Shown here: positions 2,655-54,276 of the stretch, one piece after another | Layout of the letters: every line of letters begins with the position of its first letter | How positions within the stretch are numbered: the first letter of the stretch is position 1 | Assembly: GCA_030693295.1 (NCBI GenBank) | Contig: JAUYAT010000034.1 | Span: forward strand, 1-54,276 | Source: a bacterium | GTDB taxonomy: Bacteria; Patescibacteriota; Patescibacteriia; Patescibacteriales; VMTK01 | Length of the DNA stretch: 54,276 bases | Direction of reading: 5' to 3' | Translations under genes and position numbers: made by a program | The notes under the pieces: model-generated | What the model was told of the DNA's origin: nothing | Seen by the model: the letters and a program-made list of their open reading frames with translations, nothing else | The model's database searches: none

Positions 2655-3858
2655 TACTTGGTTTAAAATTGCTAAAGAGCTTGGCTTTGTTTGGTATTGG
2701 CCAAATGAAGAAATTAAATTTTCCGAAAGCGGAAAAATGTTATTGGATAAAGAGAAACCAGAAAATGAGTTAATGGTTTTTGCTAATGCTTTTGCAAAAT
2801 ATCAACGCCAAAACCCGTTTCGTCGAGTTTTAAATAAAAATGTTCCGCTTATTTTACTCATACAAACTATAAAACTTTTGAATAATGATTCTGAATACAA
2901 AGGAGCTGGCATTTCCAGATTAGAAATACCTTTATTGCTATGTTGGCAAAACGATAATGCCAAAAGTTTATATCGAGAAATAAAGAAATTGCGCAAAAAA
3001 TACGGCTATTCGCCAAGCAACGAAGTGATTTTAGAGCTTTGCTATGGATTACTAAATGAAACAAAAAGAGACGATAACTCCATTTTAGGAGATTACCCCG
3101 ATGATTTTATTCGTAAAATGCGTTTAACTGGTCTACTTTCTCTACGCGGAGGTGGTCGTTTTATAGATATAAACACAAAAGAAACAGCAACCGTTGATTA
3201 TATTTTGAAAAAATATGTTTCTTACAAAAAATTTAAAACTGAAAAAGAATTTTTTGAATATATCGGCGAAGTTGATCGCGATTTAATCACAACACTTTCT
3301 GTATTTAAAGCCCCAGCAAAAACTACAAAGGCAGAACTGGAAAAATGGGTTAATCACTATGCTTGGGAATCAATTAAAAACGAACTTCTTAATTTAGCAC
3401 AAAAAAAATCTTCCAGTGATGATATTTTGAAAATTATTGAACAGCCATTGCGCTTAGAATTTCTAACTTCATTGGCTATCCTTAAAAAATTACCGAATGT
3501 TATCGTAAAACCGAATTTTGTATCCGACGACGAAGGACTGCCAACGAGTTTTGCTTCTGGCGGAAGCCCTGATATTGAATGCACGGAAAATAAAGACACT
3601 ATTTTAGTTGAAGTAACTTTACTGACAGGAACACAACAACATATCAGAGAATCGTTTTCTATACATCGACATCTTGAGGAGTATGCTAAAAAAGGCACTA
3701 AATCATATTCTGTGTTTATTTCGCCAAAATCTTTTATTGATACCGAACGCTACTTTGATTTTATCAAAAAAGATGGTCTGGAAGTTAGGATCTCCGATAT
3801 TGACAAATTTGTTAATAGCCTTGAGATGAAAACCACATTGAATGAAGTAACCATGTAA
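2644..3858 (+). pseudogene. AlwI-family type II restriction endonuclease, 5'-truncated
   Basis: DDEGLPTSFASGGSPDIEC...LVEVTL nuclease motif. The frame stays open upstream of ATG 2737 (SRFDTWFKIAKELGFV from 2644) but hits TAA at 2626-2628 with no start codon. Confidence 0.65.
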
Positions 3859-3864
3859 TTTTTT

Positions 3865-5388
3865 ATGAGCATATTTATAAAAAAATTAACGGTCAAAAAT
3901 TATAAATGCTTTGAAAATGAGCCGATAGATTTTAGTATTCCAAACGGAACTAAAGGAAGTGGGCTAAATATCCTGATTGGCGAAAATGGAAATGGAAAAA
4001 CTTCTATACTTGAAGCAATTAATTATCTCACACTAAGTAGTTTTTCTGCTGAAAATAAATTAAGTATAAACGACTTTTTTGATTTCAAAAAAGACATTTT
4101 GATTGAGGGTGAAACTGATGAGTTTGACTGTAGCTCGTCAATCGATTTTTATAAAGATTGGAGTTTTAAATCAAAAGGCATTTATTTTAAAGCAAAAAGT
4201 AGAGATACCAAGGAAAGAGGTAATTTATTATCAAGCCCTTTTCAAATTAACAATTATTTTATTTCACAGGAAAAGTATATAAAAAAAGATGGGACACAAG
4301 GAAAAGAAATTGATGGTAGGGACAAAATATTTTCAAAATCAAGAATTAATGGCGATGAAGAGTTGAATATTTTCTTTTTTGATAAAAACAGAACAAGACA
4401 AATTGCCACTGGAAATTACAAAACTACATTTGAAAAAATATGCGATGATCTTAATTGGAATTTTGTAAAAAATCTCAACGATGAAAATATTGAAAAAATT
4501 GTTCAAAATATAGCTGGAGAATATTTTAAAAACATTGAGGAAATTACAAAAAAGAATGTAGGAAAAAAAACGGCGAAAGACTTGAAAGATTTTTTTGGAA
4601 ACGATGAATTTGAAAAAATTAAAATTGAGCTTTTAAATCTTCTCCATCCTTTTTCTAATGCATTTTTTGCTATACGAAACGAAAATGCACTATCTCAAAT
4701 AAATGTGAGAGATTTAGGATCAGGCGTTGAAATAATATTAACTCTTTTAATGCTAAAAAATATTGCAGGAGCTTCCAAGGGAAGCATTATCTATTTAATT
4801 GACGAGCCAGAATTACATCTTCATCCTAAAGCACAAACCAAGTTACTTAATTTACTTCTTGAAGAAGCAAAAGATAAACAAATTATTATTTCTACCCATT
4901 CACCCTATTTATTCCGAGGTGCAATTTCTGAAAATGCCACACTTCTACTTTTTACCAGAGATGAAACTAAAAAAATCACAATTACAGACGCAAGAGATAA
5001 AGGCTGGGGATTATTTCCTTGGAGTCCATCATGGGGCGAAGTTAATTTTTTCGCTTATGATATGCCTACCATTGAATTTCATGATGAGTTATATGGATTT
5101 CTGCATGAAGCGTATATAGGAAAAGCAAGTGATCAAACAGATGCTGATAACAGAGGAAAACAAACGGTTTTTGAGAAAGATTTTCTTCAAACAAAATTAA
5201 CCACTACAAAAAAGTGGACTCCAGAATTTGGTGGAGTAGCTAAAAATGAAGAAGGTATTACCTTGTCTACATTTATTAGGAGTAAGACTCATCATCCTGA
5301 AAATAAAACTATGCAAAATGCGAATTTCACGGATATTGAGTTAAAAAATTCAATCGATGAATTGATTAAAATAATAAAGAATCCATAA
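3865..5388 (+). CDS. ABC/AAA-type ATPase with C-terminal putative HEPN domain (defence-like)
   Basis: Walker A GENGNGKT, signature LGSG, Walker B LIDEPELHLHP, H-loop STHS, C-terminal RSKTHH (Rx4H). Confidence 0.7.
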   Translation: MSIFIKKLTVKNYKCFENEPIDFSIPNGTKGSGLNILIGENGNGKTSILEAINYLTLSSFSAENKLSINDFFDFKKDILIEGETDEFDCSSSIDFYKDWSFKSKGIYFKAKSRDTKERGNLLSSPFQINNYFISQEKYIKKDGTQGKEIDGRDKIFSKSRINGDEELNIFFFDKNRTRQIATGNYKTTFEKICDDLNWNFVKNLNDENIEKIVQNIAGEYFKNIEEITKKNVGKKTAKDLKDFFGNDEFEKIKIELLNLLHPFSNAFFAIRNENALSQINVRDLGSGVEIILTLLMLKNIAGASKGSIIYLIDEPELHLHPKAQTKLLNLLLEEAKDKQIIISTHSPYLFRGAISENATLLLFTRDETKKITITDARDKGWGLFPWSPSWGEVNFFAYDMPTIEFHDELYGFLHEAYIGKASDQTDADNRGKQTVFEKDFLQTKLTTTKKWTPEFGGVAKNEEGITLSTFIRSKTHHPENKTMQNANFTDIELKNSIDELIKIIKNP

Positions 5389-5576: not shown

Positions 5577-5677
5577 AGCTAACACGGCATATCTGGTTAC
5601 GGCTTTTTACAAAAGCCTTCACCCATATTTGCCTCCGCTACGCTGCGGCAAACTTCGGATATTCCTAAACGTTAAAT
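5577..5677 (+). mobile_element. attC-like recombination site (empty form, 101 bp)
   Basis: AGCTAAC...GTTAAAT ends; arms acggcatatctg/cggatattcc; two internal sub-hairpins (ggctttt/aaaagcc and tttgcc/ggcaaa). Confidence 0.75.
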
Positions 5678-5906: not shown

Positions 5907-5921
5907 ACGAGTCAAAACTTC

Positions 5922-6545
5922 ACTTGACACCGAATATACGGTTGCATAAAAATTTAGATAATTTTATTTTCTAACTTATAACACCATGAACACAAAAACA
6001 ATAAGCTATTTAAGGGAAAAATTATGGTATAGACTTATAAAGGTTATTTATATTTTTTCATTTATATATTGTATCGGCGCAAGCATGGGATTTGCGATTA
6101 ATGAATTTGATAGTAACTACATAGTCATATCGCTGTTTACTCTCATACTATTCCCTATTTTAACTTATATCGGCTTTGAAATAATAAGAAGGTCATTTTA
6201 TTATATTGTTATAGGCACAATACAACCTATTGATGATAATTATTTAATGAAACTGAAAAAATATAAATTTTTAATCTCAGGTATTTTAATTATTTTACTA
6301 CTTATCATTCTGTTTCTTTGGTTTTTGGGATACCAAATAGAAAAAGACCAACAAAAAAATAAAGCAAAAGATGTATCTGAATTTCCAGAATCGCATATAT
6401 TATCAGATTCACCACAACTAAGAATAAAACCTATTAAATTAAACATACCACCTAAAAATAAAATTGTTTAAATTTTTTTAGTTCGCTCACCCGAATTCGC
6501 CCATGCTCCGCTTTGGCAAATTTCTGATACACGCACACATTAGAC
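5922..6545 (+). mobile_element. degenerate attC-like site containing a gene
   Basis: Left arm acttgacaccgaatatacggttgc; right part gctcacccgaatt...ttctgatacacgcacacattagac; both align with the 5577 and 53613 copies. Confidence 0.6.
5986..6471 (+). CDS. hypothetical membrane protein (3 TM)
   Basis: ORF with three hydrophobic segments. Confidence 0.65.
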   Translation: MNTKTISYLREKLWYRLIKVIYIFSFIYCIGASMGFAINEFDSNYIVISLFTLILFPILTYIGFEIIRRSFYYIVIGTIQPIDDNYLMKLKKYKFLISGILIILLLIILFLWFLGYQIEKDQQKNKAKDVSEFPESHILSDSPQLRIKPIKLNIPPKNKIV

Positions 6546-6607
6546 AAAATTGCAAAAACTTTTATTACTAATTAATTATATAAAAGTGCTGAATAATTCT
6601 TTCTCTT

Positions 6608-6793
6608 TGTCATTCCCAGCTTGACTGGGAATCCATGAGTTAACGGTAAGAATAAGAAAATAGATAAAAGTGTTAAAAAATATTATAGTACTTTTTAAAC
6701 TTTTTATTGATTATTCGCGTTTTTGCGGCTCACTCCTGGATTCCCGCTTTCGCTCGCCTCGCTGAAGCTTTGGCGAAGCGGGCGGGAATGACA
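6608..6793. repeat. ATTCCC-N8/9-GGGAAT paired palindromic (REP/dRS3-like) element
   Basis: Terminal IR tgtcattccc/gggaatgaca; two internal ATTCCC..GGGAAT hairpins, the right one interrupted by a 30-nt insert. Confidence 0.7.
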
Positions 6794-6819: not shown

Positions 6820-7107
6820 ATGACAAACATACAAATGCAAAATTTACACAAAGAGATAGGCGAAGCGAGAGAAGAAAATATGAATGAGCGAAACAATAAC
6901 AAAAATATTAAAAAAACAAAACGTAGAAAAATTTCGAAATTTAATATACTAATAATAAGCATTGTGCTAATGCAAATTTTTGTTTACATTACTAGTCCGG
7001 TAAAACATCCTTTTGAAGATTATTTTGGAGTTATCTTGGTGGGTTTAATAATTTTAGCTATTGGAAATTTTGTAAAGTTTATTATTAGAAAAATAAAAAA
7101 TAAATAA
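6820..7107 (+). CDS. hypothetical membrane protein (2 TM)
   Basis: ORF with two hydrophobic segments; start may be 6879. Confidence 0.55.
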   Translation: MTNIQMQNLHKEIGEAREENMNERNNNKNIKKTKRRKISKFNILIISIVLMQIFVYITSPVKHPFEDYFGVILVGLIILAIGNFVKFIIRKIKNK

Positions 7108-7120
7108 TTTAATTCTTAAC

Positions 7121-7185
7121 GTTCGCTCACCCAAATTTTCGCTCCCTTTGGTCGCAAAAACTACGGATATCCCGATACGTTAGGC
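7121..7185 (+). mobile_element. right half of attC-like site
   Basis: gttcgctcacccaaatt...cggatatcccgatacGTTAGGC, near-identical to 54022-54044. Confidence 0.7.
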
Positions 7186-7274
7186 AAAAAGAATTCCCTC
7201 CCGAGGCGGGCAGGCACCCCTTTAATTCCCCTCTTCCCAAAGCGAAAAATAAAGTTATAAATTTTAAAATAATT

Positions 7275-8276
7275 ATGACAAAAAATAATTCTCAATTCAT
7301 CATCTATCAAGCCGAATCCGGCGAAACTAAAATAGATGTTCGTTTGGAAGATGAAACCGTATGGCTTACACAAAAACTGATGGCAAAACTTTTTGATACG
7401 AGTGTGCCAAATATAAATATACATCTCAAGAATTGCTACGAAGAAAGAGAAATAAACGAAAATTCAGTTATTAAGGATTTCTTAATAACTGCCGAGGATG
7501 GCAAAAATTATAAAACAAAATTCTACAATCTTGATGCCATTATTTCGGTTGGTTATCGCATAAAATCAAAAACAGCAACTCATTTTCGCAAATGGGCAAC
7601 AAGGAGACTAAAAGAATATATTGTAAAAGGTTTTGTTTTAGATGATGAGAGACTAAAAAATCCTGATTTACCGTATGATTATTTTGAGGAACTTACTCGT
7701 AGGATTCAAGATATTCGCACTTCGGAAAAAAGATTTTATCGTAAAATTACAGATATTTATGCTTTAAGCATTGATTACGATCCGACTGATCCGATAAGTA
7801 TTGAATTTTTTCAAACTGTGCAAAATAAAGTTCATTTTGCCATTACGAAAAAAACTGCCGCAGAAATAATTTCTAAACGAGTTGATTTCAAGAAACCAAA
7901 TATGGGACTTACAAACTGGCGAGGAGGAAAGGTAAGAAAAGATGACATAATTATTGCCAAAAACTATTTAAACGAAAAAGAACTTCTAGCTCTTAACAAT
8001 CTTGTTGAACAATATTTAATTTTTGCAGAAGGACAAGCTATGCAAAGAATTTCGATGAAGATGAAAGACTGGATAAAAAAACTGGAAGGATTTTTGACCC
8101 TTAACAATCGTAAAATTTTAATGGACAAAGGCAAAGTCTCTCATCAAGAAGCAAGACGGCTTGCTGAAAAAAATTATAAAAAATTTAACAAAAAAAGAGC
8201 AAACGAATATAATCAAATAGACGCTGATTTTGATAATGTGATAAAACTTATTGAAAATAAAAAAAAGAAAAAATAA
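7275..8276 (+). CDS. RhuM-family virulence/DNA-binding protein
   Basis: ETVWLTQKLMAKLF, YNLDAIISVGYRIKS, FRKWAT, IRTSEKRFYRKITDIY motifs. Confidence 0.85.
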   Translation: MTKNNSQFIIYQAESGETKIDVRLEDETVWLTQKLMAKLFDTSVPNINIHLKNCYEEREINENSVIKDFLITAEDGKNYKTKFYNLDAIISVGYRIKSKTATHFRKWATRRLKEYIVKGFVLDDERLKNPDLPYDYFEELTRRIQDIRTSEKRFYRKITDIYALSIDYDPTDPISIEFFQTVQNKVHFAITKKTAAEIISKRVDFKKPNMGLTNWRGGKVRKDDIIIAKNYLNEKELLALNNLVEQYLIFAEGQAMQRISMKMKDWIKKLEGFLTLNNRKILMDKGKVSHQEARRLAEKNYKKFNKKRANEYNQIDADFDNVIKLIENKKKKK

Positions 8277-8303: not shown

Positions 8304-8907
8304 TTAAAAACTATTCCATAAAATAGCTTCTTTTAAAACCCTCTCTTCGTCAATCGTCTTCACCGCCCTGTTTCTCATCACGATTTTGCCGTTTATAATA
8401 ACATCCTCAACATCCCGCGCGCTTACGCAGTAAACCAAATGGGAATATGGATCGTAAAGAGGAGTTAAATGCGGCTTGTTTAAATTAATCGTGATAATAT
8501 CGGCTTTTTTTCCGGCTTCCAAAGAGCCGATTTTTTTATCCAGATTTAAAACTTTAGCGCCGTTGATTGTTGCCATGCGGACAACTTCGCGGGCGCTTAA
8601 TACTGTCGGATTGAGCTTATTAACTTTATGAAGCAGGGCGCAGGCGCGCATATCGGAAAATAAATCCAGGGTGTTGTTGCTGGCGGCGCTGTCCGTGCCA
8701 AGCCCGGCCATTATTTCCTTTTTCAGCATTTCGGGAATAGGCGCGATGCCGGAAGCAAGCTTCATATTTATTTTTTAATTCTTTTTCCTCGCCAACCGCG
8801 ATAATTTTATTTTTTTCAACTGCAACCATCCCGTCCTCAATAATGAACATTTCATCATCCATCGGCAAAACATATTTTCCTTTAACGATTAAATCGCAAT
8901 TTTGCAT
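8304..8907 (-). pseudogene. MTA/SAH deaminase-like amidohydrolase with large internal deletion and frameshift
   Basis: N-terminal ~50 aa in one frame joined at ~8759-8768 to the C-terminal part (MKLASG...GLGTDSAASNN...GSLEAGKKADI) in another frame; the HxH metal motif region is absent. Confidence 0.8.
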
Positions 8908-9989
8908 ATATGTTCCACAATTTTAACTATTTCCTCGTTCGCTCCTCTTTTTATAACCTCTTTAATGTTGCCGCTCAACTTGCCGCGCAGTATCCCGTCG
9001 TTTAACAGCTTTTTAATATTATCGGCCAATTTTTCCGGAGTTAATTCCTTCTGGGCTAAAACGATCGCCGCTTGCTTTTCGGCGAAAATCGCCGCGTTTT
9101 CCTCCTGATGCGAATCAGGCATCGGAATTAAAATCGCCGGCTTGCCCAAATAAGAAAGCTCCGTCAATACTCCCATGCCGCAGCGGCTCACTACAATATC
9201 GGCCGCGGCATAGGCATCCGCCATTTGTTCGGCATTGAGAAAATCGTAATTTTTGTAATTTGGTTTTTTGTTTCTTGTTTCTTGTTTCTTGTTTCTTCCT
9301 GCTATATGTATTATTTGGCAAAATTTTGTTAATTCATTTAAGTTCTGCCATACTAATTCGTTTACCGCCATCGCGCCCGTCCCCCCGCCGATCACCAAAA
9401 CAACCGGCAAATCGCTTTTTAAATTAAAACTGTTCCTTGCTCCTTGTTCCTTGTTCCTTGTTGTCATGCTCCGCCTGACTGGGTTTCCTGTCCAAACCGC
9501 TTTTTTACCATAATCGGCTAATGATTTTTCAAAAGCCACTGTAATGGCGCGGGCGAACGGCGCCATTAATTTATTGGCCAAACCCGGCCGCGCGTCCTGC
9601 TGGTGGATTAAAACCGGCGCGCGCAAAAGCCAAGCAGCCCAAACCGCGGGAACGCTTGCAAAACTGCCGGCGCTCATAACCAAATCAGGCCGCCATTTTA
9701 AAATAATAAAAAACGACTGGACAAAGCCAAATATTATTAAAAACGGGTCAATAAAATTGCGCCAACTAAAATAGCGGCGAAATTTACCATTGGCGATTGC
9801 TTTAAATTTAATATCTTCCTTTTCCACCATTTCACGCTCCGGCCCATGCTTCGTGCCAAGCCATAAAAAATTCGTAATTCTTAATTCGTAATTCTTAATT
9901 CGTAATTCTTCAGCCACCGCCAACAACGGCGCCACTGAACCTCCCGTGCCCCCGCCGGTTAATAAAATTTTGGCATTTTTCACTGACAT
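8889..9989 (-). CDS. murG: lipid II GlcNAc transferase MurG
   Basis: LTGGGTGG, PGLANK, WTGNPVR and HQEENA motifs; adjacent to ftsW. Confidence 0.93.
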   Translation of the reverse strand: MSVKNAKILLTGGGTGGSVAPLLAVAEELRIKNYELRITNFLWLGTKHGPEREMVEKEDIKFKAIANGKFRRYFSWRNFIDPFLIIFGFVQSFFIILKWRPDLVMSAGSFASVPAVWAAWLLRAPVLIHQQDARPGLANKLMAPFARAITVAFEKSLADYGKKAVWTGNPVRRSMTTRNKEQGARNSFNLKSDLPVVLVIGGGTGAMAVNELVWQNLNELTKFCQIIHIAGRNKKQETRNKKPNYKNYDFLNAEQMADAYAAADIVVSRCGMGVLTELSYLGKPAILIPMPDSHQEENAAIFAEKQAAIVLAQKELTPEKLADNIKKLLNDGILRGKLSGNIKEVIKRGANEEIVKIVEHICKIAI

Positions 9990-32163: not shown

Positions 32164-32997
32164 TTACACAAAGTTATAAGGAGGCCATGGGCCGCTTGAT
32201 TCAAAAATAAAACCTATTTTTTCATATTCGGCCCGCAACTTTTGCATCTCCTTTTGGAACTTATCAACCTTTTCTTTTTTTACAAGGAATGCCCCGTTAA
32301 AAATCATCGGATCGTTTCTTTGAGTTAATTCTTTTCCGAGAATTCTGTTTTCTTTTAATTCTTCAGCTAACCCCTTGAGCTTTTCAAGAAAAAGAGGGAT
32401 GTAATTATTATTTATAGAATTTTTCGCCTCTCTTTTAACCATTTCATTTATTTCCTCTTCTAAAAAATATTGTCTGCCGGCTGGCAAAGATTTAATTTCT
32501 TCAAGTTTGCTTTGGATCATTGGTGATTTCTTTTTAATTTCATTTTCAAGAAGTTGGGATTTCAAATAGATTTTCACCGATCGTTCCTCTTTTCCCTGCA
32601 AGCCGTCAAGAAGGCCTTTAAACTTTAAGTAATCTTTCTTTAAAGAACCTATTAAGCTCCCTTTATCCTTAAATATCGTCCCAAATTTCATGGGAATAAT
32701 CAGCCCATCAGAGTTATTCATCGCTGTCTCAATTGCCTTTTCATGCATCAGGGCTTTATCTTTTATCCATTCCAGATCCTCTCGCGCCCTTCTTTGAATT
32801 TCTTCTGACCCGAATTCCTTTAAAAAAACCTCGCTCACTACCGCCTCAATATCCTTATAAGGAATGGAGAAAACTTTTTCCCCGCCAATACTTTCACCAG
32901 TGTCTTTATTTGATAGTTTTTTTATTTTTACGGATGGGCTCGCCTCGCTGAAGCTTCGGCGAAGCGGGCAGATCCCATAAAGATAAAGTCCTTTCAT
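32164..32997 (-). CDS. gvpL: GvpL/GvpF family protein
   Basis: LYLYGI, IPMKFGTIF, IFNGAFLV and SGPWPPYNF motifs. Confidence 0.88.
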   Translation of the reverse strand: MKGLYLYGICPLRRSFSEASPSVKIKKLSNKDTGESIGGEKVFSIPYKDIEAVVSEVFLKEFGSEEIQRRAREDLEWIKDKALMHEKAIETAMNNSDGLIIPMKFGTIFKDKGSLIGSLKKDYLKFKGLLDGLQGKEERSVKIYLKSQLLENEIKKKSPMIQSKLEEIKSLPAGRQYFLEEEINEMVKREAKNSINNNYIPLFLEKLKGLAEELKENRILGKELTQRNDPMIFNGAFLVKKEKVDKFQKEMQKLRAEYEKIGFIFESSGPWPPYNFV

Positions 32998-33709: not shown

Positions 33710-34504
33710 TTAATTGAGGCTTATTTTTAAACCAACAAAGTTATACAAAGGAAAGGGGCCGGAACAGTTAAGCTTGGTGTTGGGAAAACTTTGAGCAAGT
33801 ATTCCTGCCCTTCGGCTAAATTCATCTTCTCCTCCTTTTTTTATTAAAAACGCGGCATTCAAAATCATATTTTCTCCAAAGAGTTGTTGCTCCTTAAGTT
33901 CTTCAGCTAAATCGCCGATGGCCTTGATTATATTTTGAGCTTCATCTTGCTTTCTTTTCTCTAATAATTTTCCAATAAATTCTCCCACGGCTATTTTCCG
34001 TTGATAGGTTAAGTGTGTTTTTTTTAACCGCTGAAGTTCTGGATTCTTGGCAATTTCTTGAAAAATAAATTGCATATTCGGCCAAAACGCTTTCAACCCC
34101 ACTTCTGTCTTGCCTTTAAATTTCTGGAGAAGTTCCTCAAATTCAGCCCTTCTTTCTTTAAGAATCTTCTTTATTTGATCTTCAGTATTAGCAATGTTGC
34201 TAAAGCTAAAAGGAAGAACATCATAATGCTTCATCACTTCCTCAATTGGTTTCTGGTGTGCAATAATGTGCTCTCGCCATAAAGGATAGTGATCGCATGA
34301 CGTATCGCTCACTATACAGGAAAGGTTTCCTTGATTAACCGCATAAGCGGCATTTCCTTCTAGGCCAACGAGATTTCCGCCCGAGGCGGATCCGCCTTTG
34401 GCGGAAAATCGATCTTTAGGAACTTTGCCTTTGATAATGCAGTGAAGATATTTTCCTGTTATGTTACTCACCCCGTTAGACATTTTTTGTTGTTTTTCTA
34501 ACAT
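33710..34504 (-). CDS. gvpF: GvpF/GvpL family protein
   Basis: YLHCII, AHQ, VLPFSF, ILNAAFLI and GPFPLYNFV motifs; directly before gvpG. Confidence 0.85.
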   Translation of the reverse strand: MLEKQQKMSNGVSNITGKYLHCIIKGKVPKDRFSAKGGSASGGNLVGLEGNAAYAVNQGNLSCIVSDTSCDHYPLWREHIIAHQKPIEEVMKHYDVLPFSFSNIANTEDQIKKILKERRAEFEELLQKFKGKTEVGLKAFWPNMQFIFQEIAKNPELQRLKKTHLTYQRKIAVGEFIGKLLEKRKQDEAQNIIKAIGDLAEELKEQQLFGENMILNAAFLIKKGGEDEFSRRAGILAQSFPNTKLNCSGPFPLYNFVGLKISLN

Positions 34505-37763: not shown

Positions 37764-38966
37764 TTACTTTTCTTTAACAATGATTGAATTTTCTACATCT
37801 TCTTTCTTAAAAGAACAAAATTGTTCTTTCTCTATCGCAAGAGCCGAAAAATAATGCTGGCAATAAACAGTTAAAACCTTGTTGGCAGCCACTATATTTT
37901 TCATTTTTCTGGCCGCTTCCTCTATGACCACCTGGTCATTTTTGTATTCATGTTTATCCGGATGATGCTCTGCGGCCAACTTATGGTAAGCGTCTCTTAT
38001 CTCTGGCAAGGCCGCGGATTCTCCGAGCCTCAAAGTTTTTCTGGCGTTATCAACTAAATCAAAATTTCCTACGCTGAGATTAATAACCGTGAAGCTGTAG
38101 GGCGCCATCGGCCCGATATATTTAAATTTCAGCTCATTTTTGTATTTTTCCGCCAGCTTATTTAATTGGAATTCTAACAGCGATTCTTCTCCTTTGCCTA
38201 TTAAAAATGAATAGTTCATAAGCATTTCTTTGTTTACCGCGCGGCGAGTTTGCTCTGCTTCGGGGTTTGCTCCCCCCTTATTGGCATAGAGAAGCTTGCT
38301 CGCCTCGCTGAAGCTCTGGCGAAGCGGGCTGGCGTTAAAATCTGGGAAAGAGGATGCGAGATACTTTAAAATATCTGCTGTATATTCTTTTCGGTATGCC
38401 TCAATAGCTTCAAATATGCGCTTGCCTAATTTTATTTTAGATGCCAACCCCAAAATTCCGCCTTTTGACTCTGCTTCCTTTTTCAATTTTTGAATCGCGA
38501 CATTTTCCCGGACTATCTTCTCAAGCATATTCTTTTCGTTCCAAAATATTTGAACAACAAACTCTGCTTTTCCGGCAATTCTTTCCAGAGCAATCTTAAA
38601 TTGTAGGTATGCCTTGGTTAAAATATTACTAATTTCCTCAATATCTTCCGCAATCATTCCAAACCTCATGGGAATAACATCGTGCTGTTTCATCAGGTTA
38701 ACATTCACCCGTTCATGTATTGCAACTAAATGGGTAAGCTCCTTTTTATCAAGCTTATCAAAATTAATAAAATAAGTGTTGCTGACCGCAACTGCTATCT
38801 CTCTGTAAGGGATGAAAATTATCTCGCGATTATTAATGCCAAACATCGCTTCTGATAAACGAAAATTATCAGAGGCCTGCCCCGTACCGTGCTTGCTCTG
38901 GTGCGGGGATGGCGTCTCTTTTGGATTCTTGATTATTGAATATATGTATTTTCTTTCTTCACTCAT
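37764..38966 (-). CDS. GvpL/GvpF family protein fused to a J domain
   Basis: YIYSII, IPMRFG and GPMAPYSF followed by IRDAYHKLAAEHHPD. Confidence 0.85.
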   Translation of the reverse strand: MSEERKYIYSIIKNPKETPSPHQSKHGTGQASDNFRLSEAMFGINNREIIFIPYREIAVAVSNTYFINFDKLDKKELTHLVAIHERVNVNLMKQHDVIPMRFGMIAEDIEEISNILTKAYLQFKIALERIAGKAEFVVQIFWNEKNMLEKIVRENVAIQKLKKEAESKGGILGLASKIKLGKRIFEAIEAYRKEYTADILKYLASSFPDFNASPLRQSFSEASKLLYANKGGANPEAEQTRRAVNKEMLMNYSFLIGKGEESLLEFQLNKLAEKYKNELKFKYIGPMAPYSFTVINLSVGNFDLVDNARKTLRLGESAALPEIRDAYHKLAAEHHPDKHEYKNDQVVIEEAARKMKNIVAANKVLTVYCQHYFSALAIEKEQFCSFKKEDVENSIIVKEK

Positions 38967-41230
38967 GCCAGGGGTTTATTTTTATTTATCTTGTTAGAAA
39001 TTTCATTTCCAACGGGATTTATTGCTTCTTCAAAATGCTTCGCGGTTATTTTAAAATTATTATCTGGTTGAACGAAATTCTCTCTCACCGCGGACATGGC
39101 GGCCTTTTTGCAAATCAGCTCTATGTCTGCGCCCGTCAGGCCTTCTGTTAGTTTGGCAAATTTCTTTAAGCTAACAGCGCGATCTAACGGCTTATCTTTC
39201 GTGTGAATACTGAATATGGCGCATCGGCACTCTTCGCTTGGCTTGGGGACTTCAAGCAGGAAATCAAATCTTCCTGCGCGAAGCAAAGCCGGATCAACCA
39301 TGTCTAATTTATTTGTCGCTCCTAAAACTACTACGGCTTTTAATTCCTCAATGCCGTCTAACTCCGCCAGAAACTGGCTGACTACTCTTTCCGTAACATG
39401 CGAGTCCGCGCCGCTTCCGCGTTTCGCCACTAAACTGTCTATCTCATCAAAAAAAACTATGCAAGGGGAAGCCAGCTTGGCCTTTTTAAACACTTCCCGG
39501 ATTCCCTTTTCCGATTCGCCGATATATTTTGAAAAAAGCTCCGGTCCTTTAATAGAAATGAAATTTACCCCCAGTTCAGTGGCGACGGCCTTGGCCAAAA
39601 GCGTTTTCCCGCATCCGGGCGGCCCATAGAGCATTATTCCTTTAGACGGCTTGAGTTTTACATAACCCAGCGCCTCGCTGTATTTTAACGGCCATTCAAT
39701 CACTTCCTTAAGCGTTTGTTTAATACACTCAAGCCCCCCTACATCTTCCCATTTGACGCTGGGAATCTCTGAAAAAACTTCGCGCAGAGCCGAGGGCTCC
39801 ACCTCTTTCAGGGCTTCTCTAAAATGTTCGCCGGTAACCTCTATTTTACGGAGCTTCTCATACGGAATGTACCACTCTTTTTCTCCGCCAGAGGCGGATC
39901 CGCCTTGGGCGGAAAACTCAATCTCTGGCATGATTTCACGCAACGCCGACATTGCCGCTTCTCGGCAGAGTGCCTCAAGATCAGCTCCGACAAATCCGTG
40001 AGTGATTTCAGCCAGCTTGTCCAAGTCAACCCCATCTGCTAAGGGCATGCCCCTTGTATGTATTTCCAGTATTGCTTTTCTGGCGTTTCTGTCTGGAATG
40101 CCAATCACAATTTCCCGATCAAATCGTCCCGGCCTGCGCAGGGCCGGATCAAGCGTATTGGGAATATTAGTTGCTCCAATCACTATTAACTGGCCGCGCG
40201 ATTCCAAACCGTCCATCAAGGCCAAAAGTTGCGCCACCACTCGTCTTTCCACCTGCTTCTCGCCGCCCATTTCTTCGCGCTTGGGCGCAATCGCGTCAAT
40301 TTCATCAATAAAAAGTATGGCCGGGGCGTTGGCTTTTGCTTCTTCAAATATTTCTCGCAGCCGGCCCTCTGACTCGCCATAAAACTTTCCCATTATTTCC
40401 GGTCCCGAAATGTGGGTAAAATAGGCATCGGTCTCATTCGCCACTGCCCGGGCAATTAATGTCTTGCCGCATCCCGGCGATCCGTGTAAAAGCACTCCCT
40501 TGGGCGGATCGATTCCTAATCTCTCAAAAAGCTCGGGGTGTTTTAGCGGAAGTTCAATCATTTCTCTAATTCTCCGTATTTCTTTTCCTAATCCGCCAAT
40601 GTCTTCATAGGTTATACCAATCCCTTGTTTTTCTTTGGCCATGCCCTTTAGCTTTATAAAAGTAAAGGGTTTTATCAAAACTACTTTGGCTGGACTCGCC
40701 TCGCTCGCCTCGCTGAAGCTTTGGCGAAGCGGGCTGAAGCTTTGGCGAAGCGGGTCGGTATCTTCTACTAAAAAATCCTGGGCCCTTGTTCCAAAAAGCG
40801 TGGCTCTTATTTTACTGCCTTTTATTACCGGGGTTCCGTCAAGTATCTCGGCCAAATATTGGGCATCCTCTTTTTTGAATGAAGCGCCGGTATTTAAGGG
40901 GGATAGGACGAGTACTCGCGCTTCTTCGTAAGAAACCTTCTGAATTTCCACCTTTTCATCCAAACCAATTTTCAAATTCTCTCTGGCAATGCCATCTATT
41001 TGAATAATGCCTTTTCCTCGATCCTCTGGATAAGCGGGCATCATCCTTGCTACAGCTTCTCTTCCCTTTTTCCCCTCTGATTTTTGCGGTGTCAATCTGA
41101 TAATATCTCCTGTATCGGCCTGAATTTTTGAAAAATACTCGGGGTCAATTCTGGCAATGGCTCTGCCCACATCTTTGCTTTGGGCTTCGGTTACTTTAAG
41201 GATTAGTGATCCGTTATTCGGTGACTTCAT
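38963..41230 (-). CDS. CDC48/p97-family AAA ATPase
   Basis: N-domain DVGRAIARID; two AAA modules (GSPGCGKT, GPPGCGKT) and RPGRFDRE. Confidence 0.93.
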   Translation of the reverse strand: MKSPNNGSLILKVTEAQSKDVGRAIARIDPEYFSKIQADTGDIIRLTPQKSEGKKGREAVARMMPAYPEDRGKGIIQIDGIARENLKIGLDEKVEIQKVSYEEARVLVLSPLNTGASFKKEDAQYLAEILDGTPVIKGSKIRATLFGTRAQDFLVEDTDPLRQSFSPLRQSFSEASEASPAKVVLIKPFTFIKLKGMAKEKQGIGITYEDIGGLGKEIRRIREMIELPLKHPELFERLGIDPPKGVLLHGSPGCGKTLIARAVANETDAYFTHISGPEIMGKFYGESEGRLREIFEEAKANAPAILFIDEIDAIAPKREEMGGEKQVERRVVAQLLALMDGLESRGQLIVIGATNIPNTLDPALRRPGRFDREIVIGIPDRNARKAILEIHTRGMPLADGVDLDKLAEITHGFVGADLEALCREAAMSALREIMPEIEFSAQGGSASGGEKEWYIPYEKLRKIEVTGEHFREALKEVEPSALREVFSEIPSVKWEDVGGLECIKQTLKEVIEWPLKYSEALGYVKLKPSKGIMLYGPPGCGKTLLAKAVATELGVNFISIKGPELFSKYIGESEKGIREVFKKAKLASPCIVFFDEIDSLVAKRGSGADSHVTERVVSQFLAELDGIEELKAVVVLGATNKLDMVDPALLRAGRFDFLLEVPKPSEECRCAIFSIHTKDKPLDRAVSLKKFAKLTEGLTGADIELICKKAAMSAVRENFVQPDNNFKITAKHFEEAINPVGNEISNKINKNKPLA

Positions 41231-41916
41231 TTTGTTTTGGTTAATTTCAATTCCAATATCCCATTTTTGAAATTCATCTCCCGAGATTCAAAATCAACTT
41301 TGGCCGGCAGCAAAATCTCTTTGGCGTATTTTCGGTCATTGCTCCCCGCTTCGCCCGCGAAGCGAGGCGAGTCCGCCTCAAATAAAAGAATATCCCCGCC
41401 TGCCATCGGCTTTGCCTCAGGCGAATGGCGGGCAGACTTTTTCAAATCGACTTTAATGCTTTTTTCGTCAATACCCGGGAGTTCGGCGATTATCAAAATA
41501 TGATCTTTCTCGTCAAACACATCAACGATTGGTTCTCTCGTCTCTGATACCTTCGGACCTTCTTTAGTTTTTTTAATATTCCCGAATGGTTCAACTTTTG
41601 TTCTTTGTCCCAGACCAGTCCGAACAGTAAAACCATATACTCCATGAATATCTTGGCGTCCCCCAAATCCTTTTCCGCCAAAGGCGGATCCGCCTCGGGC
41701 GGAAATCCGGCCGCTTCTTTTCAGTTCACCGCCGACTTCCTCGGCCCGTTCCGCTAAATCAATAAATTTCCCCAATCCTTTAAGCAAACCGCCGACAAAA
41801 GGTATATCGTCAAGCGATATTTCATCCTTGCCCTCCGACTTGTCCTCCGTAGCTTTAGCGTAGGAGGAAGCCTTGGCGAAGGAGGGTTTTCCCTTTTTTT
41901 GTTCTTCTTTTTTCAT
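41227..41916 (-). CDS. Hsp20/alpha-crystallin (GvpH-like) protein
   Basis: REPIVDVFDE, IAELPGI and FKNGILEL motifs. Confidence 0.85.
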   Translation of the reverse strand: MKKEEQKKGKPSFAKASSYAKATEDKSEGKDEISLDDIPFVGGLLKGLGKFIDLAERAEEVGGELKRSGRISARGGSAFGGKGFGGRQDIHGVYGFTVRTGLGQRTKVEPFGNIKKTKEGPKVSETREPIVDVFDEKDHILIIAELPGIDEKSIKVDLKKSARHSPEAKPMAGGDILLFEADSPRFAGEAGSNDRKYAKEILLPAKVDFESREMNFKNGILELKLTKTK

Positions 41917-42368
41917 AAAATTTTGAAAGTTCCCAAAAAATCCTTGAAGAAGAATTTTCTTCCTTTCTTTATCTCTGCTTTTGCTTTTCTTATTTTCGGC
42001 GCGGCTGGCTTTATGCCCCTTGTCTTGCTCCTTGATTTCTTAATGGGCTGGCTCTTTTTTCTTCTTGTCTTTGGAACCGAAGATTCGACTATCAATGGAT
42101 GTCTCTTTTCTTCAACAAACCCCTTGCCCTGGCACAGCAAACAATAGAGATTGGCGCCTGCTTTCTTGCCTCTGCCCCCGCATTCCTTACATATATTATA
42201 CGGCTGGTTTACAGTAACACGGCCACTGCCTTTGCAGACAATGCAAGACAGACGCTCCGCGCCCGGCTGTACTCCCTTGCCTTGGCAAAAAGCGCATGGG
42301 AATTTTTTAGTTTTTTCCGCCAAGGGCGGATCCGCCTCTGGCGGAGAATATTTTTTTTTCATTTTCAT
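41913..42368 (-). CDS. DnaJ-type zinc-finger protein
   Basis: Four CxxCxGxG repeats and a basic tail. Confidence 0.75.
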   Translation of the reverse strand: MKMKKKYSPPEADPPLAEKTKKFPCAFCQGKGVQPGAERLSCIVCKGSGRVTVNQPYNICKECGGRGKKAGANLYCLLCQGKGFVEEKRHPLIVESSVPKTRRKKSQPIKKSRSKTRGIKPAAPKIRKAKAEIKKGRKFFFKDFLGTFKIL

Positions 42369-51111: not shown

Positions 51112-52164
51112 TTACCACCATATCAATAATTTCACCAAAAACCAATAAAATTCAAATACAGGATTAATCAATCTCAACTTAACATCATCTATCTCCTGAT
51201 ACCAAATTTTTCCGGTTATCATCTTCGCTATATCCCTGTCTTTAACTTTGCGCAGGCTCTGGGCTTGTTTCCTTGCGTTATATAAATATTTCCATTTGGC
51301 CGGAGTTAAAAAATATTTCCAAACTTTGATTTTTTCTTTGAACCAGCCGGTTTTCAAGGAAAACAAAATAAGCCCTAATTCCATTATAACAAACGGCGGC
51401 AGAATTAAAAGCAGTGTTAAAAAATGATAATTCTTTATTATGGCTATAATCCTATTTCTGTCCATCCAATAATACTGCTTGATTGATTTGGCGAATTGGT
51501 ATTTATGATAAACGACCGCATCGGGCGCCAAAACGGATTTCCAGCCGGCAAGCCAAATCCGCCAACCCAAATCCTGGTCCTCGTTATACATCCAAAACTC
51601 CTCGTCAAACAAGCCGACTTTTTCCAAAACTTCTCTTTTAAATAAAACAGCCGCACCGCTTGGATAAAAAATATCCTTAATTCTTAATTCGTAATTCGTA
51701 ATTCTCGTATTATATCCCTCGCAATACCCAAACCCCAAAAAATGCGTCGCGTTGCCTAAGCTGTTTACTTTCTCTTTATCCGGCCACAACATTAATCTCG
51801 CCTGTACCGCCCCGATATTTTCGCCGCTTTCGGCAACTTTCACCAATTCGCTAACACAATCGCTCTCCACAACCGTATCCATGTTAAATAAAATAATATA
51901 ATCAAACTCTTGCGCAATCGCCCGCTTCATCGCGTCGTTGTTGCCTTTAGCAAAGCCGTCGTTATTTTTGTTTATAATAATTTCCGCCTCCGGCAATTTG
52001 CTTTTTAGATAATTAAAACTTTCCTCGCTGCTTTCATTGTCAGTGATGAAAATCTTCATCTCGCCTTGCCAATCCTGCTTCCGCAAGCTCAGAGCGCAGC
52101 CGTCCAAATATTTTTTGGCGTAGTCTTTGTAATTTGGCGCTATAATTATGGCAACTTTTTTCAT
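51112..52164 (-). CDS. GT2 glycosyltransferase
   Basis: GFAKGNN, NMDT and FDEEFWMYNEDQD motifs; start taken at MKKVA. Confidence 0.88.
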   Translation of the reverse strand: MKKVAIIIAPNYKDYAKKYLDGCALSLRKQDWQGEMKIFITDNESSEESFNYLKSKLPEAEIIINKNNDGFAKGNNDAMKRAIAQEFDYIILFNMDTVVESDCVSELVKVAESGENIGAVQARLMLWPDKEKVNSLGNATHFLGFGYCEGYNTRITNYELRIKDIFYPSGAAVLFKREVLEKVGLFDEEFWMYNEDQDLGWRIWLAGWKSVLAPDAVVYHKYQFAKSIKQYYWMDRNRIIAIIKNYHFLTLLLILPPFVIMELGLILFSLKTGWFKEKIKVWKYFLTPAKWKYLYNARKQAQSLRKVKDRDIAKMITGKIWYQEIDDVKLRLINPVFEFYWFLVKLLIWW

Positions 52165-52210
52165 ATTTTTTCTCCCTCTCCTTCGCAAGGAGAGGGCTGG
52201 GGTGAGGTTT

Positions 52211-53032
52211 TCAAACCAACGGACTTTTAATATTTCTAATGCTCGGATTCGTAACATGCGTATAAATCTGCGTTGTCCTGATATTTTGATGCCCTAAAAG
52301 TTCCTGCACATAGCGAACATCAACGCCATTTTCCAGCAAATGGGTCGCGAAGCTGTGGCGCAAAGAATGAAAAGTCGCTTCTCTCTTAATATCCGCTTTT
52401 TTCAGGGCGATTGCAAATATCTTCTGCGCCGAGCGCTCAGTTAATTTTCCGCCAAGCTGGCTGACAAACAAATACTCATTTCCTATTTTCCCCGCAATCA
52501 TATTCATTATATCATTTTTAAATTTTTCCGGAAAAATCGTAATCCTGTCTTTATTCCCTTTCGCGCCCTTTAAATGCGCCGTAAGTTCATTCAAATTAAT
52601 GTCTTTAATTTTTAAATTGACGGCTTCGCTAACTCTTAATCCGCACCCGTAAGCCAGCGCAATTACTAATTTATGTTTTTGATTCGTGATATTTCCGATA
52701 ATTTTTTCTATTTCCAAACGTGAAAGAACTACCGGAAGTTTTGATGGCGTCTTCGCGAATTTAATATCAATATTCTCATTAATCTTGCACACTTCGCGAT
52801 AAAAATATTTTATGGCTTGAAGATAAAGGTTAATGGTCTGCGACGACAACCCCCTGCCCTGTTTTTCAAGCAAGTATTTTTTTATAATCATAACATCCGG
52901 CTCTCTTTTAACATTTTTAATGTGTTTAAAATAGTCGGATAAACAAAAAAGGTAGCTCTTAACAGTTTTTCGGCTATAGTTCCGAAGTTTTAGCTCATCT
53001 TTAATTTTATCCATTAATTCTTGCAAATTCAT
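52211..53032 (-). CDS. tyrosine recombinase, integron-integrase-like short form
   Basis: LRNYSRKTVKSY SAM-like N-domain, KLPVVLS, YGCGLRVSE, KGNKDR, HSLRHSFATHLLE, LGH...TTQIY; divergent from cassettes. Confidence 0.9.
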   Translation of the reverse strand: MNLQELMDKIKDELKLRNYSRKTVKSYLFCLSDYFKHIKNVKREPDVMIIKKYLLEKQGRGLSSQTINLYLQAIKYFYREVCKINENIDIKFAKTPSKLPVVLSRLEIEKIIGNITNQKHKLVIALAYGCGLRVSEAVNLKIKDINLNELTAHLKGAKGNKDRITIFPEKFKNDIMNMIAGKIGNEYLFVSQLGGKLTERSAQKIFAIALKKADIKREATFHSLRHSFATHLLENGVDVRYVQELLGHQNIRTTQIYTHVTNPSIRNIKSPLV

Positions 53033-53135: not shown

Positions 53136-53158
53136 GTTCGCATATAAACGAGTTAGGC
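53136..53158 (+). mobile_element. attI-like site
   Basis: ...catataaacgaGTTAGGC at the first cassette boundary; GTTAGGC is complementary to GCCTAAC at 53613. Confidence 0.65.
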
Positions 53159-53177
53159 GAAATTACGCCCTTGCATT

Positions 53178-53618
53178 ATGCCATTATCAAATTCCTACAA
53201 TCCAAAAAAAGGCAGAGACTTTGAAGAAAAGGTCAGCCAAGCTTTAGAAAAAAAATATAAAACAAGCTTCAAAAAGCGATCTATAAATATCGGCACGCCA
53301 CCTAAAGCACATAATTTTGATTTAGTTTCTGAAAATGGAACTATTATTGTAGAATGTAAAAATTATTCGTGGACAGAAACCGGAAATATCCCAAGTGCTA
53401 AAACCGCCTTTTTAAATGAAGCTGTTTTATATCTTTCTCACGCGTCAGCCGACTCTAAAAAAATAATTGTCTTGAGAAAAGATAATCATCCTAAGAGAAA
53501 AGAAAGCTTAGCTGAATACTATGTCAGAACATATTTTCATTTACTAAATGCAGTTGTGATAATGGAACTTGATATTAACAACATGATAATCAAGGAAGTC
53601 GGGCGTAACATCGCCTAA
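53178..53618 (+). CDS. cassette gene: PD-(D/E)xK nuclease-like protein
   Basis: GRDFEE...NFDLVS...IVECK; its stop codon lies in GCCTAAC. Confidence 0.65.
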   Translation: MPLSNSYNPKKGRDFEEKVSQALEKKYKTSFKKRSINIGTPPKAHNFDLVSENGTIIVECKNYSWTETGNIPSAKTAFLNEAVLYLSHASADSKKIIVLRKDNHPKRKESLAEYYVRTYFHLLNAVVIMELDINNMIIKEVGRNIA

Positions 53619-54044
53619 CACGGGATATCTGGTTCGCAAGTAAAAAAATTATGAAAACAATTAAAGTAAAATCTATAATTGATGGTGACACATTCGTAGG
53701 CGAGGATAAAATACATTATCGTCTTGTCAGTGTCGATGCGCCAGAAACTAATCAACCTGGTTTTAATAAATGTAGAACTGCTCTTGAAAAATTAATCTTA
53801 AACAAGGAACTTGAGATATTAAGAGAACAATCCAATACGTCATTTGGCAGACCCGTGGTAGAAGTCAGAGTCATTGGAGAGAGTGATAGTGTTAATAAAA
53901 AAATGAATATTTTTCTGAGCAAATAATTATTTTCATAATTTTTTTACTTGCTCACGCAAATTCGGTTTTAAATTTCCGCTGGCGCATCCGCGCAATTATA
54001 GCAAAAATTTCAAACCGAACTTCAGATATCCCGATACGTTGTCT
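53613..54044 (+). mobile_element. attC-like site (432 bp) containing a gene
   Basis: GCCTAACacgggatatctg...cagatatcccgatacGTTGTCT outer stem with two sub-hairpins. Confidence 0.75.
53651..53926 (+). CDS. thermonuclease (SNase-like) protein
   Basis: IDGDTF, RLVSVDAPE and FGR motifs; 91 aa, no signal peptide. Confidence 0.75.
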   Translation: MKTIKVKSIIDGDTFVGEDKIHYRLVSVDAPETNQPGFNKCRTALEKLILNKELEILREQSNTSFGRPVVEVRVIGESDSVNKKMNIFLSK

Positions 54045-54113
54045 GAAATATTGCTCTTTTAAAACAAATATTTTTAGGAAGCTCTAAACCAATAAGTTCA
54101 AGGAGGTTATCTT

Positions 54114-54276
54114 ATGTGGGATGGAAAAAGTCATAATGAGATAAGATATTTGCGTATTTCAATTAGAAATGATGAGAACCACCTTGCCAATGCGCCTCTT
54201 GGCCCGATTCAAAAATCGCGATTGAAGAAACAAATTGAGATCCAGAAAGAAAGGCTTAAAGCGTTAAATAAGGAAA
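54114..54276 (+). CDS. partial cassette ORF running off the window
   Basis: AGGAGG at 54101, ATG at 54114, open to the window end. Confidence 0.5.
   Translation, partial: MWDGKSHNEIRYLRISIRNDENHLANAPLGPIQKSRLKKQIEIQKERLKALNKE

Follow-up and report, generated by a model that had tools for sequence, protein, structure and literature searches.

An open reading frame enclosed by the inner hairpin of an attC-like site in a Patescibacteria contig

Here, we describe a site-like palindrome at one end of a bacterial contig. The window, by which we mean the whole stretch of DNA analyzed, is contig C37, 54,276 nt of a 62-contig, 1.06-Mb Patescibacteria genome with 40% G+C. Within it, positions 53613 to 54044 form a single palindrome that resembles a recombination site and that has an open reading frame (ORF) of 91 amino acids (aa) inside an inner hairpin. 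We consider it probable that the palindrome is an attC-type site that holds a gene in its inner hairpin and ends the first cassette of an integron-like platform. Sites of the attC type are regarded as short hairpins, about 57 to 141 nt in the classical case, and folding cost is believed to keep them small. Moreover, the programs that find them cap attC length and place genes only between sites. The family described here departs from that picture, as 15 of 100 surveyed sites measure 315 to 684 nt and have a gene inside.

The right end of the contig has, in this order, a recombinase gene on the minus strand, an intergenic stretch, a 146-aa ORF, the long site, and an ORF that runs off the contig. 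The recombinase, a 273-aa XerA-like/IntI-like tyrosine recombinase (Pfam PF00589, E = 8.6e-42), is encoded at 52211 to 53032, and the intergenic stretch that follows on the contig ends in ...aaacgaGTTAGGCgaaat, the G of which is position 53152. By sequence and position, an attI-like crossover box GTTAGGC lies at 53152 to 53158, 20 nt 5' of the first cassette ORF. All features from this box on are on the plus strand. The cassette ORF (53178 to 53618, 146 aa) has a weak NERD-like match (Pfam NERD, 20.1 bits, under the cut-off of 22.1), and its TAA stop codon falls within the R'' box GCCTAAC (53613 to 53619), of which GTTAGGC at 53152 is the reverse complement. The L'' box CGGGATATCTG (53621 to 53631) pairs 11/11 with the L' box CAGATATCCCG (54023 to 54033). 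Between them lie the two arms of an inverted repeat, 53636 to 53663 and 53924 to 53951, which form the closing stem of hairpin 1, 28 nt long with 27/28 positions paired (96% complementary). The left arm includes the ATG and first codons of the nested ORF (53651 to 53926), and the right arm includes its stop codon. There follow the linker TCACGC (53952 to 53957), conserved in the site alignments with the family consensus TCACCC, and hairpin 2 (53958 to 54022), a long branched variant with arms at 53958 to 53980 and 54000 to 54022 that is seen both as an inverted repeat and in the folds. The R' box GTTGTCT (54038 to 54044) has its GTT at 54038 to 54040, and the cassette boundary is placed at the G, where contigs of run X1 also branch (54038). 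Finally, the start of the next cassette's ORF lies at 54114 to 54276.

The original prediction had drawn much of this anatomy, and its coordinates hold throughout. It proposed an outer attC-like stem around two sub-hairpins, and the outer arms are fully complementary with both hairpins present; it gave the inner stem as 28 bp with one mismatch, and this too is what the sequence holds. Its statement that the loop is the entire 91-aa ORF is right insofar as the ORF is enclosed and needs refinement insofar as the first four codons lie in the left arm and the stop codon in the right arm. It also pointed to a short, empty copy at 5577 to 5677 (plus strand) with ggctttt-tac-aaaagcc at the position of hairpin 1. 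The sequence there agrees, and the copy belongs to the same family by sequence, alignment, and right-arm search. When a 443-nt stretch with the long site was folded as single-stranded DNA, either strand gave exactly the three-way junction that had been drawn. The bottom strand folded at -60.1 kcal/mol with z = -6.0, and the top strand gave z = -4.5; none of 100 shuffles was as good in either case. A second long site, L141:9460-9925, with a 34-bp stem, formed the same junction with z = -6.9.

How widespread such sites are was surveyed from their right arms. The right-arm model, R1, scores sequence only, because RNAalifold found no consensus pairs in the right-arm alignment. Among 151 genomes of the same order, 93 have at least one match to it, and single genomes have as many as 26. 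A profile of the right arm located the family upstream of, and divergent from, recombinase homologs in other candidate phyla radiation genomes. Anchors for the survey were 123 right-arm matches in the genome of the window and 46 loci, with fetched regions that were picked for their number of right arms, not for long sites, and that are not a random sample. Up to 3 kb upstream of each anchor was searched for AAC followed by the complement of the L' box. A partner was found for 108 of the 123 right arms, leaving 15 unpaired, and long-range partners numbered 87 compared to a mean of 5.3 when the L' box was shuffled. The finder was used only when anchored in this way: run genome-wide without anchors, it returned noise, 1581 AAC...GTT pairs compared to 3592 in the reversed control. 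Two pattern searches were likewise set aside. The exact pattern TCACCCAAATT..CCGATACGTTA was too strict, with matches among 61 relatives in the genome of the window only, and the pattern GGTTCGCRARTAAAAA with one mismatch matched 77 of 401 genomes, about equal to the backwards control. Thirty loci from the latter search (L111-L140) were among the 49 (L088-L106 and L111-L140) scanned with the right-arm profile, which found a right arm in L131 only.

Most sites measured 80 to 140 nt, with short members between 60 and 200 nt. Nineteen picks exceeded 260 nt, and 15 of these were accepted as gene bearing. The other four (L007, 2175 nt; L141, 1368 nt; L151, 731 nt; L154, 782 nt) were dropped, as they had no closing stem, only a 9/10 match, and several ORFs or another site between the arms. 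Four pairings under 60 nt were dropped as well, and 100 sites remained. The 15 gene-bearing sites come from 10 sources, namely, the window, a single contig from a metagenome, and eight further genomes, of which one belongs to the same genus, and the cargo is always in hairpin 1. Thus, the split arms that the original prediction expected to find in related genomes, should it be right, do recur around ORFs. A 16th gene-bearing site, in genome G277, was missed by the finder because its R'' box has a point change from AAC to AAT. The L boxes of the 15 sites match 10/10 in 13 and 9/10 in 2. Each site has exactly one co-oriented ORF of 66 to 177 aa that fills the loop and a closing stem of 16 to 32 bp that starts 5 to 13 nt after L'' and ends at the linker. 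In three sites, the previous R' box is 232 to 683 nt away with no ORF of at least 50 aa between, so that the nested gene is the cassette's only gene. Two of 10 nested ORFs belong to a Pfam family (NUDIX and GNAT), and the other eight matched none. A supposed difference in Shine-Dalgarno sequences, absent from nested and present in ordinary cassette ORFs, proved wrong (0/14 compared to 1/41).

The closing stem appears to be a feature of the site as well as of its cargo. In hairpin 1, the stem has a median of 5 bp where the loop is shorter than 12 nt (n = 55), of 8.5 bp where it has 12 to 40 nt (n = 26), and of 23 bp, with a range of 16 to 32, where it exceeds 200 nt (n = 15), and paired stem bases correlate with loop size (Spearman 0.65, among related sites). 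The base of the stem is common to sites with different cargo: L150 and L159 both have GCAAGCTAAATAAAATTATTT, and the window and L107 both have GCAArTAAAAA..TTAT. Because the stem base recurs across cargos, part of the stem belongs to the site and is not simply brought by the cargo. The earlier idea that the cargo brings its own closing stem is right in part only. The second cargo slot that was proposed exists and is used, and its independent loading and unloading would be a conjecture. With these two qualifications, the interpretation given in the original prediction is supported for the most part.

The stem covers the start region and the stop codon in all 14 nested ORFs that have a start codon. 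Such an arrangement might also act at the level of RNA, where a long-range 5'/3' stem would stabilize or silence the mRNA of the nested gene and any role of the inner stem in DNA would be secondary. Rfam at gathering thresholds gave no match in the window, however, and none of the listed sequencing runs that hold the sequence is RNA. Moreover, the stem is retained in metagenome contig L107 despite the loss of the start codon there, and a role in RNA would be compatible with one in DNA and not exclusive of it. We regard RNA as an improbable explanation for the arrangement.

The nested ORF of the window encodes a small SNase-like protein. Its match to Pfam SNase (PF00565, E = 0.0031, 18.4 bits) is below the 21-bit cut-off, and NCBIfam NucI matches residues 3 to 37 with E = 3.4e-5. 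A large protein collection contains seven homologs, four of 64 to 75% identity and three of 40 to 44% that carry PF00565. A profile of the SNase-like cargo family had no match among PDB sequences. In 401 genomes of the class, 30 matched the protein, at no more than 44% identity except in the genome of the window itself, and no close relative was found. An 80% identical protein does occupy the same slot of a 424-nt site in the metagenome contig (L107:2967-3390). L107 and the window share homology that begins shortly 5' of R'' and ends at the GTT of R', with unrelated sequence on either side; their upstream cassette genes differ, and R'' is CGATAAC in L107 and GCCTAAC in the window, each matching its own cassette start. 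L107 has a second gene-bearing site, 433 nt long, in which a 107-aa membrane-like ORF is enclosed by a stem paired at 21/22 positions. This cargo and its site recur in G277 behind a different upstream gene, a protease. In that locus (L131, G277:C31, 1504-2295, minus strand), the ORF of this trypsin-like protease, 263 aa long, continues across the left arm and ends inside the closing stem, and the array ends against a glyA-like gene on the other strand. Relatives of the cargo also occur outside sites. A 67% identical relative of the 107-aa cargo is found in G291 with no arms at all, and a small SNase-like gene is free-standing on contig C14 of the genome of the window. Thus, the cargo consists of ordinary genes able to sit in or out of sites.

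The ORF and its 28-bp inverted repeats might instead be a separate small mobile element, passenger carrying and miniature inverted-repeat transposable element-like or of the foldback type, that inserted into a short site. Elements that target attC sites are known (excerpts of PMC3001079), and an element of this kind could target attC hairpins in the manner of IS1111-attC elements and group IIC-attC introns and may have disabled the site. In its favor, terminal inverted repeats hug the gene, the site and its cargo are common to genomes in which the upstream genes differ, and the cargo has the relatives outside any site that are noted above. We nonetheless consider a mobile element unlikely. The loop holds one small ordinary gene and no transposase, reverse transcriptase, or ribozyme, and no transposase family was found among 10 nested ORFs. 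The stem arm is single copy in the 1.06-Mb genome, and allowing up to five substitutions adds one more place, with five mismatches. No target duplication is visible at ggttc|GCAAG...CTTGC|tcacgc. Moreover, stems vary with the cargo, yet their base is common to other sites; short sites already have a hairpin at exactly that place, and stem length grades with loop size. Finally, the outer L boxes match 10/10 in 13 of the 15 long sites, as if the whole site were under selection.

The sites of the family have a common layout. The left half reads xxxYAAC, 1 to 2 nt, an L'' box of 10 to 11 nt, (G)GTTC, and hairpin 1; the right half reads TCACCCAAATTT, hairpin 2, CTTC, the L' box, 4 to 5 nt, and GTTAxxx. 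In the family alignments, the L boxes covary (ATATCTGG, ATAAGCGG, ATATGCGG, and others), and the 100 sites have 66 distinct L'' 10-mers, yet 60 of them pair 10/10. The sites thus have AAC/GTT ends and complementary L boxes in which sequence is free but structure is kept, the constancy of the AAC and GTT anchors being by construction, because the pair finder required them. The L stems are mostly perfect, and the unpaired asymmetry is on the R'-L' arm, where A faces ATAC or GATAC and sites of the GGATgATGCC type have a bulged G. The strict form RYYYAAC fits 25 of the 100 R'' boxes. The genome of the window has more copies on its contigs C48, C8, and C22. In many sites, hairpin 2 is a variant with a long loop that contains a conserved AT-rich block ending in ATAATAAGGAGG/AAGGAAG (for example, G000 C48:2930-2975, L008:8892-8969, L158, and L142:500-584). 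The block resembles a -10 box with a ribosome-binding site, lies 25 to 30 nt before R', and is too distant from the next ORF to serve it directly.

Not every right arm has an intact partner. After a 95-aa ORF (6820 to 7107), the right-arm profile finds a right arm at 7124 to 7189 (plus strand) with no detectable left arm. At 5917 to 6549 (plus strand), read by eye, left and right arms are present, the latter as a profile match at 6484 to 6549 (E = 1.6e-7), and a stem of about 24/27 (5941 to 5968 and 6452 to 6482) surrounds a 161-aa ORF (5986 to 6471). Its outer L boxes match at only about 5/9 positions, and the survey found no partner arm for it. From its sequence, the stretch looks like a decayed 17th gene-bearing site that kept its closing stem while the outer boxes eroded. 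Such orphan or decayed arms, together with the 15 of 123 right arms that are unpaired, lend something to the idea that the long site of the window is an accident of cassette fusion, in which an orphan left arm met a foreign right arm and either a short site within 53930 to 54044 is functional or none is. A fusion would require two deletions and would offer no source for a stem of 16 to 32 bp at exactly the place of hairpin 1, and the right part alone lacks R'' and L''. Moreover, L boxes as diverse as those of the family match 10/10 in 13 of 15 sites across 315 to 684 nt, and the shuffled control gave 5.3 long-range partners instead of 87. A fusion accident is hardly credible on these grounds.

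The recombinase that adjoins the array is IntI-like without being an IntI. It passes NCBIfam NF040815 ("site-specific tyrosine recombinase/integron integrase," XerA type) with 230 bits and a cut-off of 220. With TIGR02249 ("integron integrase"), it scores 200.8 bits, under the cut-off of 265, and aligns in two stretches, as its residues 180 to 198 (19 residues) replace about 76 model positions (about 178 to 253); its C-terminal end aligns to the IntI models. As in integrons, the gene adjoins the array and is divergent from the plus-strand cassettes, and divergent homologs (39 to 67% identity) lie beside arrays in eight loci (L107, L141, L142, L152-154, L158, and L160). A second, XerC/D-like recombinase is encoded elsewhere in the genome, adjoining an ftsQ-like gene. 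In many candidate phyla radiation assemblies (loci L009-L012, L015-L017, L019, and L022-L027), the recombinase gene lies within 100 to 800 nt of a contig end, on the upstream side. Because this position fits repeated sites that break assemblies, arrays are probably under-represented in metagenome-assembled genomes.

Signs that the cassettes may move come from the arrays and from the assembled contigs of public sequencing runs. Of 59 pairs of adjacent sites, 27 show full complementarity between the four variable nucleotides of R'(n) and those of R''(n+1); among random pairs the figure is 139 of 2000, and between the two boxes of a single site it is 10 of 100. Such complementarity is the footprint expected if cassettes circularize and reinsert by crossover at GTT, as in integrons. 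In X1, the run that best holds the sequence, one contig spans exactly 53152 to 54067 at a depth of 23.3. Two alternatives precede it at 53152, namely, the attI side, with a depth of 9.4, and another site's right arm, with a depth of 15.1. The cassette that follows is likewise preceded at 54038 by two alternatives, this cassette (23.3) and a 1500-nt contig (26) that ends in attI-like ...CTTCGCATATAAACGA, and these two depths together come close to the 47.3 of the contig downstream. Each break point coincides with the G of a GTT box, and no branch occurs at R'' or within the site. An inert long site would have counted against the original prediction, and the alternative neighbors at exactly the G of its R' box speak against one. 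In addition, a 469-nt contig of run X4 joins a 92% identical piece of the 146-aa ORF and the left arm to a short-site interior. The 146-aa ORF was found in the genome of the window only among 151 genomes of the order, and the case for the same cassette with a short site thus comes from this one X4 contig.

The same data bear on whether the arms are inverted-repeat sites at which a tyrosine recombinase that acts on double strands flips the interior, as in invertible promoters and shufflons. The left and right arms are indeed inverted repeats, and the best score of the recombinase is of the Xer type. Interiors, however, occur in one orientation only. Arrays were co-oriented in the 20 fetched regions, with right arms on both strands in a single locus, L146 (G047:C10, 5371-18917), where two groups of sites on opposite strands are convergent. 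Within array spans, the linker motif occurs 64 times forward and 8 times reversed. The contig branch points lie at R', outside the arms, and not at their inner edges, and the R'(n)/R''(n+1) rule suggests excision and insertion instead of inversion. We find inversion very improbable.

We favor instead a gene-bearing attC-type site and propose the following model. Family sites would fold as a three-way junction in which an outer stem of R and L boxes with an asymmetric unpaired spacer encloses a hairpin 1 of free sequence, the TCACCC linker, and hairpin 2. The loop of hairpin 1 would be a permissive slot, occupied by one complete co-oriented gene in about 15% of the sites surveyed, such that the variable tip not only tolerates a whole gene but is adapted to one. 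A long, near-perfect closing stem, which begins shortly 5' of the start codon and ends shortly 3' of the stop codon, would join the halves of the site so that the single strand can still fold into a shape that the recombinase recognizes. The cassette, consisting of the upstream gene and the gene-bearing site, would move as one unit with crossover at G|TT of R', as in integrons. In favor of the model, the two stem arms in L107 changed in concert, from GCAAG/CTTGC to GCGAG/CTCGC and from ATG/CAT to ATT/AAT (2991 to 3012 and 3275 to 3301), and the sequences read as a stem that was kept, or homogenized, at a cost to the cargo. We infer that the long site can itself recombine and that its stem is retained because it keeps the site foldable.

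Several points weigh against this model. First, we infer that the recombinase acts on folded single strands, and it lacks the additional domain near patch III that is specific to IntI, with about 57 residues missing. Excerpts of PMC4889954 and PMC9668308 treat that domain as defining and as necessary for integron recombination, and because the recombinase is without it, we file the system as integron-like and not as a classical integron. Second, extrahelical bases on the R''-L'' arm, where classical sites have them, are not found in the family. Third, the minimum-energy fold of the short copy at 5577 to 5677 keeps hairpin 1, a 7-bp stem with a 3-nt loop, and not the outer stem, which is weak; its bottom strand gave z = -3.1, and its top strand gave z = -1.7 with 12 of 200 shuffles as good. 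Fourth, the survey covered the 20 fetched regions richest in right-arm matches with thresholds set by us, and p-values overstate because sites within arrays are related. Fifth, X1 is probably the source sample of the window, and its alternative junctions may reflect related strains and not ongoing recombination. Beyond 15 nt, the attI-like contig that leads into 54038 no longer agrees with the attI of the window; with this difference further upstream, it may come from a related strain, and the event may be historical. Sixth, the change from ATG to ATT in L107 costs the nested SNase-like frame its start codon, and no ATG, GTG, or TTG frame remains. Thus, the cargo can decay while the stem persists. 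Finally, a gene-bearing site and its cargo occur behind unrelated upstream genes (window and L107; L107 and G277), which movement only as a whole cassette does not explain.

How the same site came to lie behind different genes has three candidate explanations: exchange of hairpin heads, homologous recombination in the conserved arms, and secondary-site events. For the first, we speculate that synapsis of folded sites with both strand exchanges carried out by the Xer-like recombinase, unlike IntI, might swap heads between cassettes, a head being L box, closing stem, gene, hairpin 2, and L box, and that the slot might thereby be a second, independent level of cargo exchange. We hold this extension to be doubtful. 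It would explain the same gene-bearing site behind unrelated genes with different R'' boxes, and it would explain the relative of the window's upstream ORF that is followed by a short site with a different interior in X4. The R'' box of G277, being a point change, means that homology boundaries cannot place the crossover at the L box. If head exchange were true, these small-genome groundwater bacteria would have a two-tier cassette system in which attC tips are themselves carriers of cargo.

An attC site, or 59-base element, is an imperfect palindrome that has R''...AAC at one end and GTT...R' at the other, its L boxes being complementary and its R-L spacer unpaired. In excerpts of PMC2727003, the extrahelical bases that set strand choice classically lie on the R''-L'' arm, and the tip is of free sequence and can be branched, as in the 65-nt branched tip of Vibrio cholerae repeats. 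Tips from 3 nt up to that branched 65 nt are given in the excerpted literature. Like attC sites, family sites have the palindrome ends, L boxes, spacer, and a free and branchable tip; they end co-oriented cassettes beside a divergent tyrosine recombinase, with the boundary at the G of GTT and R'(n) complementary to R''(n+1). Unlike attC sites, they have a conserved three-way junction with a TCACCC linker as the tip, a whole gene in 15 of 100 cases, unpaired asymmetry on the R'-L' arm, and few strict RYYYAAC boxes. The recombinase, like IntI, is a tyrosine recombinase of the Xer/IntI neighborhood encoded divergently beside an attI-like box and an array and, unlike IntI, is short at the IntI-specific domain and passes NF040815 and not TIGR02249. 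By the description of published finders in excerpts of PMC4889954, such arrays would at best be reported as clusters of attC that lack an integrase.

Inserts of foreign DNA that include an ORF have been found inside attC before, in group IIC-attC introns and IS1111-attC elements (excerpts of PMC3001079). The insert described here differs in that it is an ordinary small gene without a mobility function; it occupies one and the same hairpin loop every time, and its closing stem lets the site fold again. Both the introns and the IS1111-attC elements are autonomous, have their own reverse transcriptase and ribozyme or transposase, and interrupt the site. Synthetic attC sites have also been placed within coding sequences and, per excerpts of Nivina et al. 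2020 (PMC7439510), function stems from structure and not from sequence, so that overlap is possible; there the site was put in a gene by design, and here the gene is in a site by nature. A search of one collection of papers, without their supplementary tables, returned no account of Patescibacteria integron-like arrays or of a gene inside attC. The family is thus apparently an undescribed and widespread variant of the integron cassette system. Foldable sites of 315 to 684 nt with real genes (NUDIX, GNAT, nuclease-like, and membrane proteins) offer a direct, testable handle on the tolerance of a structure-specific recombinase for single-stranded DNA, and metagenome cassette inventories miss or mis-segment cassettes whose sites bear genes. 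Moreover, integron-like arrays that are common in one Patescibacteria order and run by a short recombinase without the integron-defining domain bear on the origin of integrons from Xer-type enzymes. A stem-closed slot inside a structure-specific site is also a design idea for recombination cassettes.

We note a second cassette-like region at the other end of the contig (1 to 8300). The contig begins ...acgtta, a site end, and the region encodes a truncated RadC-like ORF (183 to 620), two ORFs of the Bro-N/RhuM type (633 to 1484 and 7275 to 8276), a 507-aa ATPase-like ORF (3865 to 5388), and small membrane ORFs with family sites between them, at 5577, 6484, and 7124. This array probably continues on C48, C8, and C22, contigs whose breaks fall at sites. 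Two families of G+C-rich hairpin repeats, scattered between genes and unrelated to the recombination sites, are also present: GCTCGCCTCGCTGAAGCTTTGGCGAAGCGGGC at 6749 to 6785, 32935 to 32971, 38295 to 38331, and 40700 to 40757 and TTTCCGCC...GGATCCGCC...GGCGGAAA at 34373 to 34407, 39881 to 39915, 41671 to 41705, and 42313 to 42347. Two housekeeping-type genes, a murG-like ORF (8889 to 9989) and a glycosyltransferase ORF (51112 to 52257), contain in-frame short tandem repeats (9865 to 9915, 9255 to 9300, and 9430 to 9460 in the former and 51668 to 51704 in the latter), the units of which (TTCGTAATTCTTAA and CTTGTTT) encode low-complexity inserts such as NYELRIKNYELRI. Finally, overlapping ORFs of 93 and 153 aa on the minus strand at 8304 to 8907 resemble the N-terminal and the C-terminal part of a single amidohydrolase-type gene that lacks its middle, and to judge from their translations, they may be the product of a deletion or a pseudogene.

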